A stretch of DNA of 64,000 bases, from the NCBI GenBank assembly GCA_963805625.1, contig CAWDVE010000016.1, positions 96,001-160,000 of the forward strand, given 5' to 3'. Shown here piece by piece: positions 45,502 through 55,973 of this stretch. The notes beneath the pieces are model-generated. The model made no database searches, had not been told where the DNA came from, and worked only from the letters and a program-made list of their open reading frames with translations. This stretch comes from an uncultured Candidatus Rokubacteria bacterium. GTDB taxonomy: Bacteria; Methylomirabilota; Methylomirabilia; Rokubacteriales; DASRDR01. Within the stretch, counting starts at the first letter, position 1, and every line of letters starts with the position of its first letter. A program made the position numbers and the translations under genes.

Positions 45502-48027
45502 TCACCTCGCGTGGCCACCGGCCACTTCGCCGAAGACGAGGTCCTCCAGCCACTCGATGCGGATCCGGTCGGGCCCCAGGAGGCTTCCGCCGTAGCTCTC
45601 GCTGACCGATCGACGCGTCGTCCAGAGGATGACTTGCTTTCCCTGGGCCTGGAGCGTCTTGACGACCTCGTGAAAGTCTCCGTCCCCTGTCCCGATGACG
45701 TACACCGGGATCTCGGGATACTCCCGCAGGACGAAGTGGATCTTCTCCCGCAGCAAGTGATCGGAGGCGTTGGCCTTCTCGCGCCCGGCGATGTCCGTGG
45801 AGAAGCGCGCGTTCCGGACGGCCTTCTGATCGCCTTCGAAGAAGTCCCGGTCCCAGTCGGCGACGGCCCACCGCTGCCGGGGGAGACCGTGCCGCCAGGC
45901 CGCGTCGAGGAGCCGGGAGGCAAGCTCCACGCCCATGAGCCTCGCGCGCCCGACCTGCGCCCGGGGCTCCGGGAGATCGTCCAGGTGGCGAGCGAGGCTC
46001 ACCTTCACGTTCTCCCAGTCGAGCATCAAGGCGAGGGCCGCGCGGCGCGCGGCCGGATCTCCGGCCGACGGTCGGCTGCCTTCAGGCGTGTCACGCTCCG
46101 GCGTCACGGTCCCCGCCGGCTCGGCCCCGCTGCCCGGCGCCCCGCCGTCCTCGCCCGCCCCGCTTCCCCCGACGTCGGCGAGCGGCGCGCCGAGCCGCTC
46201 GGCCCACAGGCGCGCGTCGGCCTCCGAGAAGCTCGTCTCCGGCCAGCTCTGCCGGAGAACTCGGAGCGCGTCCTCGCGGAACCCGTGCCGCTGACCCCAG
46301 CCGAGGAGGGCGCGCAAGAGCTGGGCCTTCTTTCGGGGATCGACGTTGCGCCGGTGCTGGGTGACCCGCCAGCTGTGGAGCCGGCAGCGCCAGCTGGCGG
46401 CGAGGTCCCCGGCCTCCTCGTTGAGCGTGGCCGCGCAGTCCCAGTTCTTGAAGACTCCCGCCTCGGGGCCGGCCGCGACGCGCTGCCGGAACCACTCGAC
46501 ACCCGTGGCGACCAGCGAGGTCTCGATGAACTCACGCGTCAGCTGGTCCAGCTCCTCGAAGAGCAGGCGCTCCCGCGGGTCAGGGAAGATGCGATCCGGA
46601 TCCCGGAGGATGCGGTTGATCCGACGAAAGTGGTCGCGGAACCGCGCAGCCGCGCCTCCGCTGCCGGGCGCTTCTGCGTCCTGGAGCGCCGCGAGGAGGT
46701 GCGCCTCGTAATGGCGCGCGCGGAGGCAGAGCGCCGCGAGCACATCCAGGCGGCTCTGCTCGATGGCCCAGAGGAGGCACAGCTCGAAGGCCTCCGTCGG
46801 GTGGGCGTCCAGGTCGAGGACGGGTAGCAGGACGTCGAGCGCCTCGTCCGCGCGGGACGGCAGGCGGCGCAGCGCGCAGGCGAGGTTCCAACGCGCGGTC
46901 CATCCACGGTGCTCGTGGAAGCGGTCGGAGGCAATGGCGGCCTCGAGCAGCTCGATGACGTCGTGAATGTCCGTGCCCTGACCAAACAAGGTTAGCGCGT
47001 AGGCGTACCACTCCTTGGCGATGGTATTCGTGCTGCGGCGGTAGTGAAGGTCGGCGAACTCGTCGAGCGCCCGGGGATCCCGCCGGAGGAGGAGCTCGCG
47101 AGCCTGGTGAAAGGCGGGGTCGGGGGCGCCCACGACCCGCAGCTCCGAGACCGGCTCGCGGTGCTCGGGCTTCGCGTCGAGCCGGAGGCGTAGGTTTCCT
47201 TCCAGCTCGTCCCGCACGTCGGCCAGGGCTTGCGCGAGCGCCTCGGTATCGCCCCGCTCGACCGCGTGGCGGATCTCCCCCCAGATGATCGGTGTCACCA
47301 GGGTTGACAGCGGCTCGGGGCGCCGCGCGGCGCGCTGCGCACGCCGGACGGCGGCGGGGGCGATCCGCTCGCCGATGTCCGCCCAGTCCCGACGGATGCG
47401 CTCGAGCCGTGTCGGCACCTCGAGCTCGAGGACGGCCTCGATATTCTCCCGGATCAGGCGGTCGCGCGCCTCCGGGTCGCTTTCGGCCGCGAGCCGCGCG
47501 CGCTCGAGCTCGAGCAGGATCATCTCGTCGATGGCCAGCGCCACCTGGGTGGGCAGCGTGCCCCACGCCGAGCTGACGAACGCCGCCATGGCGGCCCGCA
47601 CGGCGCGCACGTCGGCGTCCCCCCGCCGGCACCGAGCGACCTGGTCGGTCACGAGGGCGCGCACCGCGTTCCCGAGGGCCTGGCGCATCGGACGGGTCGC
47701 GTGCATCAGCGGGCTGGCCCGCCGGAACAGCTCGTGCGCCGCCTGAAAGAGGCGGAGCGCCTCGCCGAGGTCGCCGTCCCGGGCTGCGCGGCGCCCGAGC
47801 ACGTCGAGCGCGAAGCCGAGCGTGGTGAGGTCCCGGCTCCGGGAGCCGTTCCGGACCTCCGCGGCGCCGGGGACGTCGCCCTTCAGGATTTCTACGGCGG
47901 TGCGATTCTTCTCGAGGTGCTCGGGGGGAAGATCCTGGAGGTGGATCTCAACCACAGCCACGAGCCCGGGAAGAGCATCGACGATCTGCTCGGCGGACCA
48001 AAGCGGCCACTCGACAACCTTGTCCAT
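45502..48027 (-). CDS. Helical-repeat (TPR-like) protein with C-terminal NYN/LabA (PIN-like) domain
   Basis: C-terminal LMLDWENV...NASD...GTGDGDF; Ala/Leu-rich paired helices upstream. Confidence 0.8.
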   Translation of the reverse strand: MDKVVEWPLWSAEQIVDALPGLVAVVEIHLQDLPPEHLEKNRTAVEILKGDVPGAAEVRNGSRSRDLTTLGFALDVLGRRAARDGDLGEALRLFQAAHELFRRASPLMHATRPMRQALGNAVRALVTDQVARCRRGDADVRAVRAAMAAFVSSAWGTLPTQVALAIDEMILLELERARLAAESDPEARDRLIRENIEAVLELEVPTRLERIRRDWADIGERIAPAAVRRAQRAARRPEPLSTLVTPIIWGEIRHAVERGDTEALAQALADVRDELEGNLRLRLDAKPEHREPVSELRVVGAPDPAFHQARELLLRRDPRALDEFADLHYRRSTNTIAKEWYAYALTLFGQGTDIHDVIELLEAAIASDRFHEHRGWTARWNLACALRRLPSRADEALDVLLPVLDLDAHPTEAFELCLLWAIEQSRLDVLAALCLRARHYEAHLLAALQDAEAPGSGGAAARFRDHFRRINRILRDPDRIFPDPRERLLFEELDQLTREFIETSLVATGVEWFRQRVAAGPEAGVFKNWDCAATLNEEAGDLAASWRCRLHSWRVTQHRRNVDPRKKAQLLRALLGWGQRHGFREDALRVLRQSWPETSFSEADARLWAERLGAPLADVGGSGAGEDGGAPGSGAEPAGTVTPERDTPEGSRPSAGDPAARRAALALMLDWENVKVSLARHLDDLPEPRAQVGRARLMGVELASRLLDAAWRHGLPRQRWAVADWDRDFFEGDQKAVRNARFSTDIAGREKANASDHLLREKIHFVLREYPEIPVYVIGTGDGDFHEVVKTLQAQGKQVILWTTRRSVSESYGGSLLGPDRIRIEWLEDLVFGEVAGGHAR

Positions 48028-49657: not shown

Positions 49658-50245
49658 ATGTGCCGCCCGCTTCAACCTTTTGGAGGACGCGTGCCCCTCC
49701 TGCTCCTCCTGGCGGGCCTTCTCGGAAGCGGATGTGCTCGGGTCACGCTGGATGCCGTGCGTGCTGACGTTGCCGCGGGCCAGGGCCACCTCATCACCAC
49801 CGTGCCCTTCATCGCCCAGGACGCCTATCAGTGCGGCCCCGCGGCGCTCGCCATGGTCCTCCGCTACTGGGGGGTGGCCGCCGACGCAGAGGAGATCGGG
49901 CGTACTCTCTACCTGCCCTCCGCTCAGGGCGTCCTAAACCTCGAGCTCGAGTTCGAGGCCCGCCGGCGCGGGTTCCGCACCCAGGCCTTCGAGGGCTCCC
50001 TCGAGCGCGCCAAGACGGAGCTCCGCCGCGGCCGTCCAGTCATCGTGTTCCAGGACCTGGGGCGGGGGCCGGTATCCATCCCGCACTTCGCCGTGCTGCT
50101 GGGCTACGACGACCGGGCCGAAGTGGTCGTGCTTCACTCGGGAGCGACTCCTTACCAGGTCCTCTCGTACGCCGAGTTCCTCCGGACCTGGGCCGCCCGC
50201 CGGGGCTGGTCACTCCTGATCACGCCGCCCGGCGCCGCCACGTGA
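49658..50245 (+). CDS. C39-like cysteine peptidase lipoprotein (PA2778-like)
   Basis: Lipobox LGSGC; VPFIAQ..QCGPAALAMVL; HFAVLLGYD. Confidence 0.85.
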   Translation: MCRPLQPFGGRVPLLLLLAGLLGSGCARVTLDAVRADVAAGQGHLITTVPFIAQDAYQCGPAALAMVLRYWGVAADAEEIGRTLYLPSAQGVLNLELEFEARRRGFRTQAFEGSLERAKTELRRGRPVIVFQDLGRGPVSIPHFAVLLGYDDRAEVVVLHSGATPYQVLSYAEFLRTWAARRGWSLLITPPGAAT

Positions 50246-50916
50246 GGGGGGCCGAGATCCGGGGCCGCCTCCTCGGAGTCGCGCTTGGCGCGGCCCCTGC
50301 CGCCCTGCTCGCCGTCGGCGGCGACGTGGTCAACGTCTACACGGGCGAGGTCGTTCGCTGGGACGTGGCCGTGGCCGATGGGCGCATCGCGGCGGTCGGC
50401 CCGGACCTCGCGTCCCTGGCGGGCCCGGCGACCGAGCGGCTCGACGTCCGCGGCAAGGTGCTCGTTCCGCTGGCGGCGGTCTGTGACCGGCGGAGCGGGC
50501 TCCGCCGCGGCCTCGGGGTCGTCCAGGGGTTCGGGCTCCGCGAGGGGGCCGTCGTCTCGACGCTGTCGTTCGACACCGCCGACCTGGTCCTCGTCGGCGC
50601 CTCGCGCGAGGCGCTGGCGGCCGCCGGGCAGCGGGCGGTGGCCCTCGGCGGCGGGTTCGTCGTCGTGGACGGCCGGGGCGCCGTGCGCGCGGAGCTGCCG
50701 CTCCCGCTGGGCGGCATCGCCGCGGCTGGCTCCGTGTCGGAGCTGGCCCACGGCCTCGAGACGGTGACCGGGGCGTTGCGCGACCTGGGCTCGCAGCTCG
50801 GCCGCCCGCTCCTGACGCTGCAGACCCTCACGTTCTCGGCCATTCCCGCGTTGCGCCTGACCACTCGCGGGCTTCTCGTCGTCAAGAGCCGCGAGCACGT
50901 GCCGGCCCTCCTCTGA
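50242..50916 (+). CDS. Adenine deaminase-like protein lacking the catalytic barrel (N- and C-terminal domains only; may be a pseudogene)
   Basis: VVNVYTGE..VAVADGRIAAVG..GKVLVP is joined to GFGLREGA..GGGFVVV..ELPLPLGG..IPALRLT. Confidence 0.75.
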   Translation: MRGAEIRGRLLGVALGAAPAALLAVGGDVVNVYTGEVVRWDVAVADGRIAAVGPDLASLAGPATERLDVRGKVLVPLAAVCDRRSGLRRGLGVVQGFGLREGAVVSTLSFDTADLVLVGASREALAAAGQRAVALGGGFVVVDGRGAVRAELPLPLGGIAAAGSVSELAHGLETVTGALRDLGSQLGRPLLTLQTLTFSAIPALRLTTRGLLVVKSREHVPALL

Positions 50917-50941
50917 GCGACGCACGCTCGCCAGGTCCACG

Positions 50942-52114
50942 ATGCCGTCCTCCACGATCCTCACCGCAGCGTTCCTGACCGCGGCGGTCGCGAACTTCCT
51001 CTTCTTCACGGGGCTTGCCGGCTTTGTCCTACTGCCGCTCCACCTCCGGCGGCTCGGCGCGACGGACGGCCAGCTCGGGCTGATCATGGCGTGCTACAGC
51101 GCGACGGCGATCGTCGTCCAGCCGGTCGTCGGCGCGTGGGTCGACCGTGGCGGCCGCCGCGCGTTCCTCGTGACCGGCGCGGTGCTCACCTCCGGCGTGG
51201 CCCTCCTGTTCGCGGCCGTGCCCGACGCGCTGGGGCTCTTCCCGCTGCTGCGCGCGCTCCAGGGCGTGGCCTTCTCCGTCTTCTTCATCGCGAATTTCAC
51301 GGTCGTGGTCGATCTAGTTCCACCGGACCGGCGCGGCCAGGCGCTCGGGATCTTCGGGATCTCGGGGCTTGTCTCCGGAGCCGTGGGTCCGGCGCTTGGC
51401 GAGCTCCTGGTGCAGGCGGCCGGCTTTCGTGGACTGTTCCTGGCCGCGGCGGTCCTCCCCCTCCTGGCCGCCGGGATCTCCGCACGGCTCCACCTCCCGC
51501 CGGAGCCGCGCCGGGTCGGCGCGGGCGAAGGCCTGCCGGGCCTGCTCCGCGGGATCCTCTCGGCCCCCCGGCTTCCAATGACGCTTGGCGCAGCCTTCGG
51601 TCTTGGCCAGGGCGTGATGTTCACGTTCTTCCCGACCTACGCCCTCGACCTCGGGGTTCGATGGGTAGGGCTCTTCGCGGTCACCTACTCGGGCGCGGCC
51701 CTCGGCGTGCGGGCCACGGCCAGCGGCCTCGCGGACACCATCGGGCGGCGGGCCGTCATCATCCCCGCGTTGGCACTCCAGGCCGCCGCCACCGTGCTCC
51801 TCTCGAGCCTCGGCCTTCTCGCGCGGAGCCTGGGCTTCCCGGCCGGACCATTCCTTGCTCTCGCCGGCCTTCTCGCGGGCGCCGCGCATGGACTCCTCTA
51901 CCCGGCGCTGACGGCGCTCGTCGTGGACGTGACCCCGCCGGAGCGCCGCGGTCGCATGGTTGGCGTGTTCATGGCCTTCATCCTTCTCGGTCAGGCTGGG
52001 GGGGCCGCGGGGTTCGGCCACCTGGCCCACGCGGTGGGCTACGGCCCAATGTTTGGCATCCTGAGCATCCTCCTCGCCGGCGCGTGCGTCCTCGCGTTCC
52101 GCCTGGAGCGCTGA
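50942..52114 (+). CDS. MFS transporter
   Basis: GAWVDRGGRR and ADTIGRR motifs; about 12 TM helices. Confidence 0.9.
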   Translation: MPSSTILTAAFLTAAVANFLFFTGLAGFVLLPLHLRRLGATDGQLGLIMACYSATAIVVQPVVGAWVDRGGRRAFLVTGAVLTSGVALLFAAVPDALGLFPLLRALQGVAFSVFFIANFTVVVDLVPPDRRGQALGIFGISGLVSGAVGPALGELLVQAAGFRGLFLAAAVLPLLAAGISARLHLPPEPRRVGAGEGLPGLLRGILSAPRLPMTLGAAFGLGQGVMFTFFPTYALDLGVRWVGLFAVTYSGAALGVRATASGLADTIGRRAVIIPALALQAAATVLLSSLGLLARSLGFPAGPFLALAGLLAGAAHGLLYPALTALVVDVTPPERRGRMVGVFMAFILLGQAGGAAGFGHLAHAVGYGPMFGILSILLAGACVLAFRLER

Positions 52115-52208
52115 CTCGCGGGGTCCCCCGTGCCGCCGGGGGCCCGGGAGGGATGGGGTATACTTCGGCACGGCGCCGGCGGGGTGCCCTGTGAAGGAGG
52201 AGCGGACC

Positions 52209-52736
52209 ATGCGGGGAGCGCGGGCGTGGACGCTGGGCATGGTGATCCTGGTGGGGCTCATGAGCCTGGGCGCGACGGAGCCGCCGAAGGTGGGCGGCCC
52301 GGGGGCGAGCCCGCAGGAAGCCGAGGTGACGGGCGTCGTGGTGGACCCGAGCACGCGGCAGCCGATCGTTCTCCTCCAGGGCAAGCGGGACCGTCGGGCG
52401 CTCGCGATGACGATCGGCCGGTTCGAGGCCAACGGGATCGCCATCGCCCTCCAGGGGGTCACGCCCCCGCGCCCGCTCACGCACGACCTGTTCCTGAACG
52501 TCCTCGGCGACCTCCGCGCGTCCCTCAAGCGCATCGTGGTGACCGATCTCCGCGACGACGTCTTCTACGCGCAGTTGCACCTGGAGGCCGCGGGGTCGCG
52601 GCTCACCATCGATTCCCGGCCCTCGGACGCCATCGCACTGGCGCTCCGGGCGCGGGTGCCCATCCTGGTGGAGGACCGGGTCTTCGACAAGGCGGACCGG
52701 CTCCTGCCCAAGGGTGGGGGCCCGCCGACGCTCTGA
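52209..52736 (+). CDS. Bifunctional nuclease (BFN/DUF151) family protein with signal-like N-terminus
   Basis: IGRFEANGI, PRPLTHDL and DSRPSDAIALALR motifs; AAGGAGG RBS; upstream TATACT. Confidence 0.88.
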   Translation: MRGARAWTLGMVILVGLMSLGATEPPKVGGPGASPQEAEVTGVVVDPSTRQPIVLLQGKRDRRALAMTIGRFEANGIAIALQGVTPPRPLTHDLFLNVLGDLRASLKRIVVTDLRDDVFYAQLHLEAAGSRLTIDSRPSDAIALALRARVPILVEDRVFDKADRLLPKGGGPPTL

Positions 52737-52742
52737 CCGCTC

Positions 52743-53699
52743 GTGCGTGACGGACCCGGATCGAGCCGAGCTCTGCCCGCGGCCGAGTGGGCCGTCCAGC
52801 GCCGCCTGGATGACCTGATCGGCAAGCTGGAGCCGAAGTTCGGCGACCTTCGAGGCCGGGTCGAAGTTCTCCCGCGCCCGGGCGTGACCTTCGCGATGAT
52901 CGGCGGGGCGGACACGGCGAAGGCGGCGATCAGCGGCCTGTCTCACGCCCTCCGGATGCCCGATCTCTACCGGCGCTGGGGCATCACCCCGCCGCGCGGC
53001 GGGCTCCTCTACGGGCCACCCGGGAACGGCAAGACCTTGCTCGCGAAGGCCCTGGCCACCCTGTCGGAGGCGCTCTTCTACCACTTCCGCCTGGCGACCC
53101 TCACCTCCAAGGTGGGCCCGCTGGCGGCCGAGGTGATCAAGGAGGTGTTCCAGCTCGCGAGCTCGGAAGGCAAGGGCGTCCTCTTCTTCGAGGACGCCGA
53201 GGCGCTCTCCTTCGAGCACATCCTTCCGCCCGAGCGCGCCCGGGAGGCGGCGGCGCCGCTCCTCATCGGGATCTGCGAGCTGCTCGACGGGCTTCGCGCC
53301 TTTCCCTCGCTTCTCGTCGTTGCGTCCACCAGCCGTCCCGACGGGATCGGCTCGCTCCTCATCAGCCCCGGACGTCTGGACCACCTGATCGAGGTGCCGC
53401 TGCCCGACGGTCCCGCCCTGCAGGAGATCCTCGACATCCAGCGCAAGCGTGCGGAGGCCCTGGCCGAGCGGACGCTCTTCGAGCCGATCGACTCGGAAGT
53501 GCTCGTGTCCCGGCTGGCCGGGATGAGCGGTGGCGAGGTCGCGGAGGTGGTCCGCCGCGCGCTCGAGGAGAAGGTCCACCGGTCCGGGGACGGTCCGGAG
53601 GCCGGACTCGTCCGGACGGCCGATCTCCTCACCGCCGTGGACGAGTCGCGCCGCGTGCGGGACGTGGTCGTCAAGATCCGCTACGGCCAGTACCTCTGA
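52743..53699 (+). CDS. Single-module AAA+ protein (classic AAA clade) with C-terminal GQYL motif
   Basis: GITPPRGGLLYGPPGNGKT, FFEDAE and SPGRLD; ends IRYGQYL. Confidence 0.9.
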   Translation: MRDGPGSSRALPAAEWAVQRRLDDLIGKLEPKFGDLRGRVEVLPRPGVTFAMIGGADTAKAAISGLSHALRMPDLYRRWGITPPRGGLLYGPPGNGKTLLAKALATLSEALFYHFRLATLTSKVGPLAAEVIKEVFQLASSEGKGVLFFEDAEALSFEHILPPERAREAAAPLLIGICELLDGLRAFPSLLVVASTSRPDGIGSLLISPGRLDHLIEVPLPDGPALQEILDIQRKRAEALAERTLFEPIDSEVLVSRLAGMSGGEVAEVVRRALEEKVHRSGDGPEAGLVRTADLLTAVDESRRVRDVVVKIRYGQYL

Positions 53700-53798
53700 T
53701 GCCGAGCCCGGAATCGGAGACGCGCGCGGCGACAGGACCCGCGGCGGCGGACTCGCGCGGAACGTCGCGGGCGTAGCCCAACGAGCGCCAACGACACG

Positions 53799-54212
53799 AT
53801 GGTGTCCGAGACGACGATCCGGGTGCGGTACGCCGAGACCGACACCATGGGCGTCGTCTACTACGGCAACTACCTCACCTACTTCGAGGTCGGTCGCGTC
53901 GAATTTCTTCGCCAGCACGGCTTTCCCATGTCGGCGGTGAACCGGAAGGTCCACATGCCGGTCGTGGAGGCGTCGGTGCGGTACGTCAGGCCTGCGCGGC
54001 TCGACGACCTGCTCCGCGTCCGGTGCTGGATCAGCGAGCGGAAACGCGCGTCGTTCGTCTTCCGTTACGACATCCGCCACGCGGAGACGGGCGAGCCCGT
54101 CGCGACGGGAGAAACCCGGCACGCGTGCTGGAATCCGGAGACTCAGCGCATGATCGCCATCCCCGACTGGCTCGAGCCGCTCCTCACCCCGGAGACCGCG
54201 TCTGCGCTGTGA
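53799..54212 (+). CDS. Acyl-CoA thioesterase (YbgC/FadM family)
   Basis: RVRYAETDTMGVVYYGNYLTYFEVGR motif. Confidence 0.92.
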   Translation: MVSETTIRVRYAETDTMGVVYYGNYLTYFEVGRVEFLRQHGFPMSAVNRKVHMPVVEASVRYVRPARLDDLLRVRCWISERKRASFVFRYDIRHAETGEPVATGETRHACWNPETQRMIAIPDWLEPLLTPETASAL

Positions 54213-54314
54213 CTGCTGTCTGCCCCGGCCGCCGGGCCTGACCCGGACGGCTCTCCCACTGCGTTTCAGCGCCTCCGCGCCGAGCCCGGGGCGCGTGCCT
54301 CGGAGGAGGTTACC

Positions 54315-55973
54315 GTGTCCAGCGTGACCCCTGGCCGCCCACGCCCGATCACGGAGGTCTCCGCCCGTGCCGGCCTCGCCGACGAGGAGCTCGTTCCCTA
54401 CGGTCGCGAGATTGCGAAGGTCTCGGTCCGGGCGCTCGGCGCCCGGCGTAACGCTCCGTCGGGCAAGCTCGTAGTCGTCTCGTCCATCACCCCCACCCCG
54501 CCGGGCGACGGGAAGACAACGGTCACGATCGGGCTGGGGCAGGCCTTGTGGCGGATCGGCCGCCGGGCCGTCATCGCGCTTCGCGAGCCGTCGATCGGGC
54601 CGTGCCTCGGCATCAAGGGGGGCGGGACGGGGGGCGGGCGCTCGCAGGTCGTTCCGGCAGACTCGATCAACCTCCACTTCACCGGCGACATCCACGCGGT
54701 GGAGACTGCCCACAATCTCCTGGCCGCGTGCCTGGACAACCACCTCTATCACGACAACGCGCTCCGCATCGATCCACGGCAGGTCCTCTTCCGCCGCGCC
54801 ATGGACATGAACGACCGCGCCCTGCGGGAGATCGTGCTCGGCCTGGGCGGCCGGTTCCAGGGTTACCCCCGCGAGGAGGGGTTTCTCATCACGGCCGCGT
54901 CCGAGGTGATGGCGCTCCTCTGCCTGTCTGAGGACCTGATGGACCTCAAGGCCCGTCTGGGGCGGATCCTCCTCGGGTTCACCTTCGACGGCCGTCCGGT
55001 GGTCGCCCAGGACCTCAAGGTCACCGGGGCCATGGCGGCGCTCCTCCGCGACGCGATCCATCCCAACCTGGTTCAGACGCTCGAGGGCACGCCGGCCCTG
55101 GTCCACGGGGGCCCATTCGCCAACATCGCTCACGGCTGCAACTCCGTCATTGCGACGAAGCTCGCACTCAAGCTCGGCGAGATCTGCATCACCGAGGCGG
55201 GATTCGGGTTCGACCTCGGCGCCGAGAAGTTCTTCGACATCAAGTGCGGCTACGCCGGGCTCCGGCCCGACGGGGTCGTGCTGGTCGCGACCGCGCGCGC
55301 GCTCAAGTACCACGGGGGCGTGCCGATGAGCGCCGTGGACCAGGAGGACCTGCCCGCCATCAAGCGGGGCATGGCGAACCTCGAGAAGCACGTCGAGGAC
55401 ATCCACCTCTTCGGCGTCCCGGTCGTCGTCGCGCTTAACCGCTTCCCATCCGACACCGACGCGGAACTGGTCGCGATCGTGGAGCACTGCGCCGAGCTCG
55501 GCGTTCCCGCCGTGCCCGCCAACGTGTTCGGCGAGGGCGGCGCGGGCGGCGAGAAGCTGGCGGCGACCCTGATGGACGTGCTCGCCCGGCATCCCTCACA
55601 GTTCCGGCCGCTCTACGACTGGGGCGCGCCCGTCAAGGCGAAGATCCACACGATCGCGACGCGGATGTACGGAGCGGAGCGGGTGGCCTACACGAAGCGG
55701 GCGGAGGGGCAGATCGCCCAGGCGGAGACGCTCGGATACGGCGGGCTCCCGATCTGCATGGCCAAGACGCAGCGCTCGCTCTCGGACGACCCCACCCTCC
55801 TCGGCCGGCCGCGGGATTTCACGGTCACGGTGAGCGAGGTGCGGATCTCGGCGGGCGCGGGCTTCCTGGTGCCGATCACCGGAGACATCCTGACGATGCC
55901 GGGGTTGCCTCGGGTCCCGAGCGCAGAGCGGATCGACGTGGGCGCCGACGGGCGCATCACGGGGCTCGTCTGA
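54315..55973 (+). CDS. fhs: Formate--tetrahydrofolate ligase
   Basis: TPTPPGDGKTT, LREPS, INLHFTGD, HGGPFANIAHG, EAGFG and TMPGLP motifs. Confidence 0.97.
   Translation: MSSVTPGRPRPITEVSARAGLADEELVPYGREIAKVSVRALGARRNAPSGKLVVVSSITPTPPGDGKTTVTIGLGQALWRIGRRAVIALREPSIGPCLGIKGGGTGGGRSQVVPADSINLHFTGDIHAVETAHNLLAACLDNHLYHDNALRIDPRQVLFRRAMDMNDRALREIVLGLGGRFQGYPREEGFLITAASEVMALLCLSEDLMDLKARLGRILLGFTFDGRPVVAQDLKVTGAMAALLRDAIHPNLVQTLEGTPALVHGGPFANIAHGCNSVIATKLALKLGEICITEAGFGFDLGAEKFFDIKCGYAGLRPDGVVLVATARALKYHGGVPMSAVDQEDLPAIKRGMANLEKHVEDIHLFGVPVVVALNRFPSDTDAELVAIVEHCAELGVPAVPANVFGEGGAGGEKLAATLMDVLARHPSQFRPLYDWGAPVKAKIHTIATRMYGAERVAYTKRAEGQIAQAETLGYGGLPICMAKTQRSLSDDPTLLGRPRDFTVTVSEVRISAGAGFLVPITGDILTMPGLPRVPSAERIDVGADGRITGLV

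Follow-up and report, generated by a model that had tools for sequence, protein, structure and literature searches.

Gene and Predicted Protein

The window considered here, a 64-kb stretch of DNA from a soil bacterium, carries at 52743–53699 (+) a stop-free translation of 318 amino acids, which begins with GTG and ends in KIRYGQYL immediately before the stop codon (tail and stop at 53673–53699, +). Because the open frame measures only 320 codons from stop to stop, with an in-frame stop two codons upstream of the start, no longer N-terminus is possible; homologs are mostly 300–330 residues long, and N-terminal truncation or a miscalled start was rejected. A pseudogene was rejected as well, since the dN/dS of 0.10–0.16 obtained in all eight same-genus pairs indicates purifying selection. 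Portions of the gene are covered by contigs assembled from four RNA libraries (348 nt with one difference in X1 and 176 nt with three in X5 being examples), but contigs cannot demonstrate transcription and DNA carry-over is possible. Neither a sigma-70 promoter nor a terminator was found in 50800–54400.

The only Pfam match of the protein is AAA (PF00004, E 9e-18), and it falls below the cut-off of every NCBIfam model, including those for PAN, ARC, and CDC48 (123 versus 803 for the last). An AlphaFold model (pLDDT 90, pTM 0.87, from a 19-row alignment) consists of the AAA core and lid, a last helix at residues 292–313, and then about five free residues. Ahead of the module, the model contains one strand (residues 40–43) and one helix (residues 13–33; 52779–52841, +), which is specific to the family and stands in place of a folded N-domain. 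This helix, in which R20 (96%), D24 (94%), and L29 (94%) are conserved over 50 rows, is a possible contact for substrates or an adaptor or for oligomerization.

Walker A (GPPGNGKT, residues 91–98; 53013–53036, +) is intact, while four other positions of the motor are altered. Walker B reads VLFFED (residues 146–151; 53178–53195, +), with Asp at the position of the catalytic Glu, the pore-1 loop SKVGP (residues 122–126; 53106–53120, +) has no aromatic residue, the sensor-1 Asn is replaced by Ser197 (53331–53333, +), and the second region of homology (SRH) reads SPGR (residues 208–211; 53364–53375, +), so that its first Arg is gone and its second is kept. Alignment with p97 D2 places E150/D151 on the Walker B DE, S197 on the sensor-1 Asn, and S208 on the first Arg of RPGR. 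The features of the classical AAA clade are nevertheless present, namely PF00004, the helical lid, and a PGR-type SRH motif with the invariant Arg211. The original prediction, which had described a single AAA module ending in KIRYGQYL, preceded by a short stretch without coiled coil or OB domain and bearing an intact Walker A and these four alterations, thus holds for this protein in each of these sequence features.

The Walker B Glu, the sensor-1 Asn, the SRH Arg, and the pore aromatic are required by AAA enzymes for hydrolysis and for gripping the substrate; the contact of the first SRH Arg is made between AAA subunits and is weakened by its loss. The role of the pore aromatic is stated for both Mpa (PMC8755798) and Cdc48 (PMC5511170).

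Conservation of the Family and of Its C-Terminal Tail

Of the 251 genomes searched in the phylum, 205 contain a match to the protein at E ≤ 1e-40, and a profile of the family matches 110 of the 135 genomes of Methylomirabilota/Rokubacteria that are at least 90% complete. Among 280 homologs, which comprise 90%-identity clusters together with the members of four clusters and are not independent, GQYL forms the C-terminal end in 277 and the longer KIRYGQYL in 262, bearing out the expectation that the tail is conserved among orthologs. Of the three exceptions, two appear to be truncated and one to have a frameshifted end. Conservation along the protein, measured over a 50-row alignment, is highest in the last eight residues, which have a mean top-residue frequency of 0.99 as against 0.90 for Walker A and 0.66 for the whole sequence. 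The Walker A Lys is kept in 276 of the 280 homologs (three have gaps) and the second SRH Arg in all 280.

Homologs with names come from Rokubacteria, NC10, and Methylomirabilota. One divergent cluster, ending in RIRTGQYL, is labelled Deltaproteobacteria by its source, and the corresponding DNA pattern had a single match in metagenome contigs, on a contig without an AAA-sized ORF. The GQYL-tailed family was found neither in the phylum to which an Actinophytocola genome belongs (251 genomes sampled) nor in that of an Anaerolineales genome (251 genomes), in which five matches belong to the sister family described below. A viral scan and a plasmid search, each with one distant family member as query, gave no match, and a locus search of genome contigs yielded no family member among the matches listed, these being generic Walker A matches that served only as outgroups.

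Within the genome itself, a GQYL-like end pattern is matched by three ORFs, namely the present gene, ARC, and a frame of 62 codons that ends in GHYL. The 318-residue protein and ARC are the only long ORFs ending in GQYL, and about 0.02 such ends would be expected by chance among 4129 coding-like ORFs.

Decay of the Catalytic Motifs in One Lineage

The 280 homologs were grouped by their identity to the query, at 65% or more (n = 120), 50–65% (n = 81), and below 50% (n = 79); in an alignment derived from genomes, the three groups coincide approximately with the query's family, with the other Rokubacteriales, and with the rest of the families in the class. In the closest group, Walker B is ED in 72, DD in 40, DE in 7, and otherwise in 1, the sensor-1 Asn is found in 2, and neither the first SRH Arg nor the pore aromatic is found at all; the combination of Lys, DE, Asn, and Arg is kept in just 1 of the 120. 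In the middle group, DE is present in all 81 and a pore Phe in 78, with the sensor-1 Asn in 18 and the first Arg in none. In the most distant group, DE occurs in 76, the sensor-1 Asn in 74, the first Arg in 66, and a pore Trp in 73, and all canonical motor features occur together in 63 of the 79 proteins. The ED order is absent from all 160 homologs below 65% identity, of which 157 have DE, 2 have HE, and 1 has EE.

Two elements of the original prediction are not supported by this comparison, namely that the ED swap and, more generally, catalytic degeneracy are traits of the family as a whole. Because ED is confined to close homologs and canonical motifs are kept in most of the distant ones, the degeneracy is lineage-specific, such that a minimal AAA family has decayed in one branch and is not itself degenerate. 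The motor is predicted to be intact in the distant relatives and largely switched off in this lineage.

Origin of the Family

A profile search over 1.84 billion representatives returned, beyond family members, single-module AAA proteins of about 380–560 residues. Among these is a sister AAA family (P0155, P0163, P0164, P0198, P0204, P0242, and P0258; L198–L202) of about 480–560 residues with an N-domain of about 200–280 residues, for which no Pfam match was found. The sister family has in common with the 318-residue family the KWG-x-PPKG, helical-lid, and LEEKV signatures, but it possesses the N-domain, keeps the canonical motifs, and never ends in GQYL. This end was seen in none of 16 members inspected, and the sister tails either contain [ILMV]GF, as in 9 of 11 cases, or, in a further set of members, read RAF/RPF/QRA.

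A maximum-likelihood tree of 51 rows (LG+G4) unites the 17 rows of the family in a clade (100/99) that is nested in the sister family (100/100; inner node 98/96), away from ARC, PAN, CDC48, and FtsH; by this tree, the sister proteins are its nearest relatives. The rows are those of an earlier 62-row set minus 14 (two long-branch pairs, bacterial CDC48-like rows, two FtsH rows, and the genome's own two-module AAA protein) plus three sister rows, with outgroup labels assigned by architecture and source organism. A forced grouping of the family with two ARC rows was rejected (AU p = 0.003, 50 rows), and with it the notion of a truncated ARC paralog. Given this nesting within relatives that lack GQYL and the rejected grouping with ARC, the family has likely acquired its tail independently of ARC, as far as the phylogeny indicates. 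In the simplest history, the ancestor of the family would have lost the N-domain and acquired GQYL, the tail arising either by point change or by copy from arc.

Two further origins were considered and set aside. One half of a split CDC48, or a fragment of a fused form, is disfavored by weak evidence, in that no longer fused form was seen and none of the 120 best longer matches, which are of CDC48/FtsH type and at most 38% identical, ends in GQYL. A split arrangement with the N-domain serving as a separate adaptor was rejected, the sister N-domain having no match in the genome at E ≤ 1.

Comparison with Known Proteasome Regulators

The protein resembles ARC/Mpa in having a single classical AAA module and a C-terminal GQYL and in occurring in the same genome as prcAB. 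However, it scores only 69.4 bits with the ARC/Mpa model TIGR03689 (cut-off 504.75), compared with 749 for the genome's true ARC, to which it is about 27–31% identical. The coiled-coil, OB, and beta-grasp regions of ARC/Mpa are missing, the tree places it in another lineage, its gene lies outside the operon, and its motor motifs are altered in this branch. With Bpa/PafE it has in common the GQYL tail and a gene away from the proteasome locus, and by analogy it may play a similarly passive role here. The folds are unrelated, as the protein has an AAA fold and no match to PF10759, and Bpa is a dodecamer with twelve tails.

Cpa is likewise a non-ARC AAA protein tied to the bacterial 20S proteasome and encoded outside the locus. 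However, Cpa is reported to be a Cdc48 homolog without HbYX whose last five residues are not needed (PMC6017811), and Cpa/CDC48 combines an N-domain with two AAA modules, whereas the present protein has one module and a fixed tail. As regards PAN/Rpt, the closest Foldseek match of the model is the PAN AAA domain (3h4m, TM 0.75), but the scores of 126 (TIGR01242) and 133 bits (NF003069) are far from the cut-off of 500, and the PAN-type tail is hydrophobic-Tyr-X rather than GQYL. Archaeal CDC48/AMA embody the same principle, in which several AAA groups gate a single core (PMC3493965). PAN, CDC48, and AMA each have an N-domain, whereas the 318-residue protein has none and forms its own clade. Overall, the protein is distinct from ARC, Bpa, and Cpa, as had been proposed, failing the TIGR03689 cut-off, the match to PF10759, and the two-module architecture, and by sequence criteria it is not a member of these families or of PAN.

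Host Proteasome and PrcA Pocket

The genome encodes a full Pup-proteasome system. The genes arc, dop, prcB, prcA, and pafA, all above their NCBIfam cut-offs, lie on the same contig about 390 kb away, and thus, as had been noted, prcAB and pafA do not adjoin the gene and are outside the 64-kb window. There is no pup-like frame in the gap between dop and prcB (L015); pup, ending in GGQ, is on another contig (L157, G000:C13:478521-478712). The expectation that this lineage has a 20S proteasome is therefore borne out, and the pocket residues of PrcA are kept: positions 26 and 52 of host PrcA are Arg and Lys, and residues with these numbers are reported to bind the Tyr and terminal carboxylate, respectively, of PafE (10.1101/249060). 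The equivalence is based on counting from the start and on an alignment with Rhodococcus PrcA that is free of gaps over the first 128 residues. Across 20 sequences of the phylum, K52 is invariant and position 26 is Arg in 16 and Lys in 4. Of the features of a GQYL/HbYX regulator, a conserved terminal motif with penultimate Tyr, co-occurrence with prcAB (apart from the carriers discussed below), and these pocket residues are present here.

Bpa was not found in the genome of the 318-residue protein, but 31 of the 135 near-complete genomes of the phylum, which is not an actinobacterial one, have it, 28 of them over the cut-off (L158–L162). Since the rokubacterial Bpa tails are GQYL or GHYL in all five loci read, GQYL/GHYL appears to be the local docking code. 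Replacement of Bpa by the 318-residue protein was considered but is not specifically supported: Bpa is present in 1 of 13 genomes of the query's family, yet it is also absent from families f7–f13, which have canonical members.

Co-occurrence and Genomic Context

Among the 110 near-complete carriers of the gene, PrcA is found in 98 and PrcA or ARC in 102. In two f6 genomes that are 100% complete, the gene is absent, and so are PrcA and ARC. Eight carriers have neither PrcA nor ARC (G202, G154, G219, G220, G224, G003, G141, and G203), and five of these were examined. G202 and G154 contain PafA/Dop fragments at contig ends. In G219, G220, and G224 (93–100% complete), no PrcA, ARC, or PafA/Dop was found and no proteasome locus is assembled; each has a single PF00227 match with a score and length like those of the stand-alone match in the host genome, which is probably HslV. 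These three genomes keep Bpa, ending in GQYL in G219 and G220, and this suggests an assembly gap rather than true loss of the proteasome locus. PrcA is likewise missing from all six f10 genomes, probably because of assembly fragmentation: G041 has ARC together with pieces of prcB, dop, and pafA at contig ends, G043 has ARC and a piece of pafA, and G045 has part of ARC. In G040, G042, and G044 (63–87% complete), there is no ARC-level match, and G040 and G044 have no PafA/Dop.

In the other direction, all nine near-complete f13 genomes have ARC and none has the gene, which is therefore dispensable; the single-contig genomes G017 and G053 also lack it, though PrcAB is present. Because most of the phylum has both, co-occurrence with the proteasome lends only modest support to docking.

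The gene is preceded by a gene for a bifunctional-nuclease-domain protein (PF02577; 52191–52736, +), whose stop lies 6 nt before the AAA start, and followed by one for a YbgC-type acyl-CoA thioesterase (53799–54212, +). The gene order in Rokubacteriales is MFS, nuclease-domain protein, 318-residue AAA protein, thioesterase, formate-THF ligase, and ABC. The nuclease-domain and thioesterase neighbors are conserved in Rokubacteriales only, and since other families have other neighbors, the context is uninformative on function. A functional link to the nuclease-domain protein, the thioesterase, or the formate-THF ligase was rejected on these grounds. By eye, the nuclease-domain protein has a hydrophobic, signal-peptide-like N-terminus. 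Elsewhere in the window, the gene at 50152–50916 matches only the adenine deaminase C-terminal domain (PF13382) and looks internally shortened, and 45502–48027 encodes a helical protein of 841 residues whose C-terminal part matches the NYN nuclease domain right at the Pfam cut-off.

In the loci read, the family gene is never in a proteasome operon, the sole proximity being convergence with arc in G020. That arc (L055:8175-10888) ends in GHYL and has no other proteasome genes within 20 kb.

In f8 and f10, the family gene stands tail to tail with an operon for an AAA ATPase, an unknown protein of 259 residues, a weak Prok-JAB, a ThiF/E1 protein, and a small protein of 89 residues ending in EKG, likely a bacterial ubiquitin-like conjugation cluster to judge from its gene content. 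The two face each other directly in G043 (L061:5184-8520) and with one gene between them in G035 (L057:4545-8815) and G034 (L060:9755-10398, partial). As f8 and f10 are sisters in the tree, this arrangement may be inherited synteny. The host genome (G000) has only a distant AAA of this cluster. It also has a CDC48-like two-module AAA gene (G000:C10:106539-108338; L007/L012/L013) that is interrupted by a stop or frameshift close to where its first module begins; this gene ends in KMDRK, without a docking motif.

Proposed Function and Alternatives

The sequence evidence suggests that the protein most likely works like a GQYL proteasome regulator, and docking on the 20S core as such is very probable. 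As to what happens after docking, we lean, with a confidence only a little above even, toward a second, GQYL-tailed and Pup-independent 20S cap that in this lineage would be a hydrolysis-poor gate-opener for unfolded proteins and not an unfoldase. The protein would form a ring, as its AAA fold implies, whose GQYL tails would enter between the alpha subunits in the manner of Mpa and PafE; the Tyr would dock on R26 of PrcA and the terminal carboxylate on K52, as published for PafE/Bpa. Because the coiled-coil and OB domains are absent, it would not bind Pup. It would bind ATP, given the kept Walker A, but would hydrolyze it poorly and grip substrate weakly, and the cap would let unfolded proteins or peptides into the 20S core. 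The best reading of the family is that it was ancestrally ATP-driven; with an intact Walker B, sensor 1, arginine finger, and aromatic pore loop, the canonical distant members would be ATP-driven translocases, acting on substrates that have loose ends or are brought by a partner of the N-terminal helix. The reach of the tail into the PrcA pocket is uncertain, as only about five residues follow the last predicted helix.

A negative regulator is an unlikely alternative, in which a weakened ring or subunit would dock by GQYL on the alpha-ring or join ARC rings and thereby limit Pup-dependent degradation. The tail has stayed fixed while the motor residues decayed stepwise, as would suit such a role, and excess Bpa is reported to block Mpa-dependent degradation via its tail in vitro (PMC4254994). 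In addition, six tails may not suffice for gate opening: in one report, 20S was not activated by a PafE ring bearing six GQYL tails (10.1101/249060), so that a passive hexamer might, by analogy, dock without opening the gate. However, catalytic motifs and an aromatic pore loop, kept in 63 of 79 distant members, would be needless for a pure plug, and mixed rings with ARC are unlikely given the low identity and the separate lineage.

Equally unlikely, in our view, is a working ATP-hydrolyzing 20S unfoldase that tolerates ED/DD, a Ser at sensor 1, and a single Arg and receives substrates via the N-terminal helix or an adaptor. The (near-)invariance of the Walker A Lys and second SRH Arg, the two acidic residues in Walker B, and purifying selection are in its favor, and p97 D1 also lacks the pore-1 aromatic, as seen in our alignment and in a report on Cdc48 (PMC5511170). 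Against it, the catalytic Glu, sensor-1 Asn, first Arg, and pore aromatic have changed together in the group, and no homolog of the sister N-domain is encoded in the genome as a split adaptor.

It is improbable that the tail serves another partner or the stability of the fold, its likeness to the docking motif being incidental. With its eight residues, the invariant stretch KIRYGQYL exceeds the docking motif in length, no proteasome locus is assembled in three carriers, and the conserved neighbors are unrelated to proteolysis. On the other hand, the motif is exactly that of ARC/Bpa, in the same phylum and at the extreme C-terminus, where the chance expectation for the genome is small, and the sister AAA family without the tail is found elsewhere. 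Slightly more improbable still is a 20S assembly or maturation factor, or a non-ring adaptor, whose tail binds alpha subunits or half-proteasomes: HbYX-dependent assembly factors are known for archaeal and eukaryotic proteasomes (PMC4254994) and loss of the first Arg, with its weakened inter-subunit contact, would suit a non-ring adaptor, but the gene is absent from lineages with the same PrcAB (f13, G017, and G053) and so is not needed for assembly, and it lies outside the prc operon.

To return to the favored docking cap, a fuller history is put forward tentatively, at well below even confidence: a third GQYL cap would have been built independently, from an AAA motor of an unrelated lineage that shed its N-domain, gained the tail, and decayed stepwise to a pseudo-ATPase gate-opener. 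The path would run within one phylum, from an ATP-driven translocase of the Methylomirabilales type to the pseudo-ATPase of the query's family. With no beta-grasp region, the tail would be unhidden and could directly activate closed-gate wild-type 20S. In archaea, several unrelated AAA groups gate 20S through such tails (PMC3493965).

Concluding Remarks

The GQYL-tailed minimal AAA family is real and conserved and apparently undescribed. A literature search, with thin coverage of subscription journals, returned no description of it. For bacterial proteasomes, a 2025 review names only the GQYL-bearing activators Mpa/ARC and PafE/Bpa and the tail-independent interactor Cpa, all actinobacterial (PMC12288473), and a 2019 review likewise names only Mpa/ARC, PafE/Bpa, and Cpa (PMC6466877). 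Bpa itself was discovered by its tail and by co-occurrence (PMC4254994), and archaeal PAN, CDC48, and AMA are described as ATPases with such tails that act as a network and all have an N-domain (PMC3493965).

Within the family, proteins that have the tail in common form a natural gradation between fully canonical and motif-decayed states. This series bears on the need for ATP hydrolysis in gate opening and on the sufficiency of six exposed tails, two questions left open by the poor activity of Mpa on wild-type cores. If the proposed role is true, the family would represent an independently evolved GQYL activator in an abundant uncultured phylum and would extend the archaeal network of AAA gatekeepers to bacteria.
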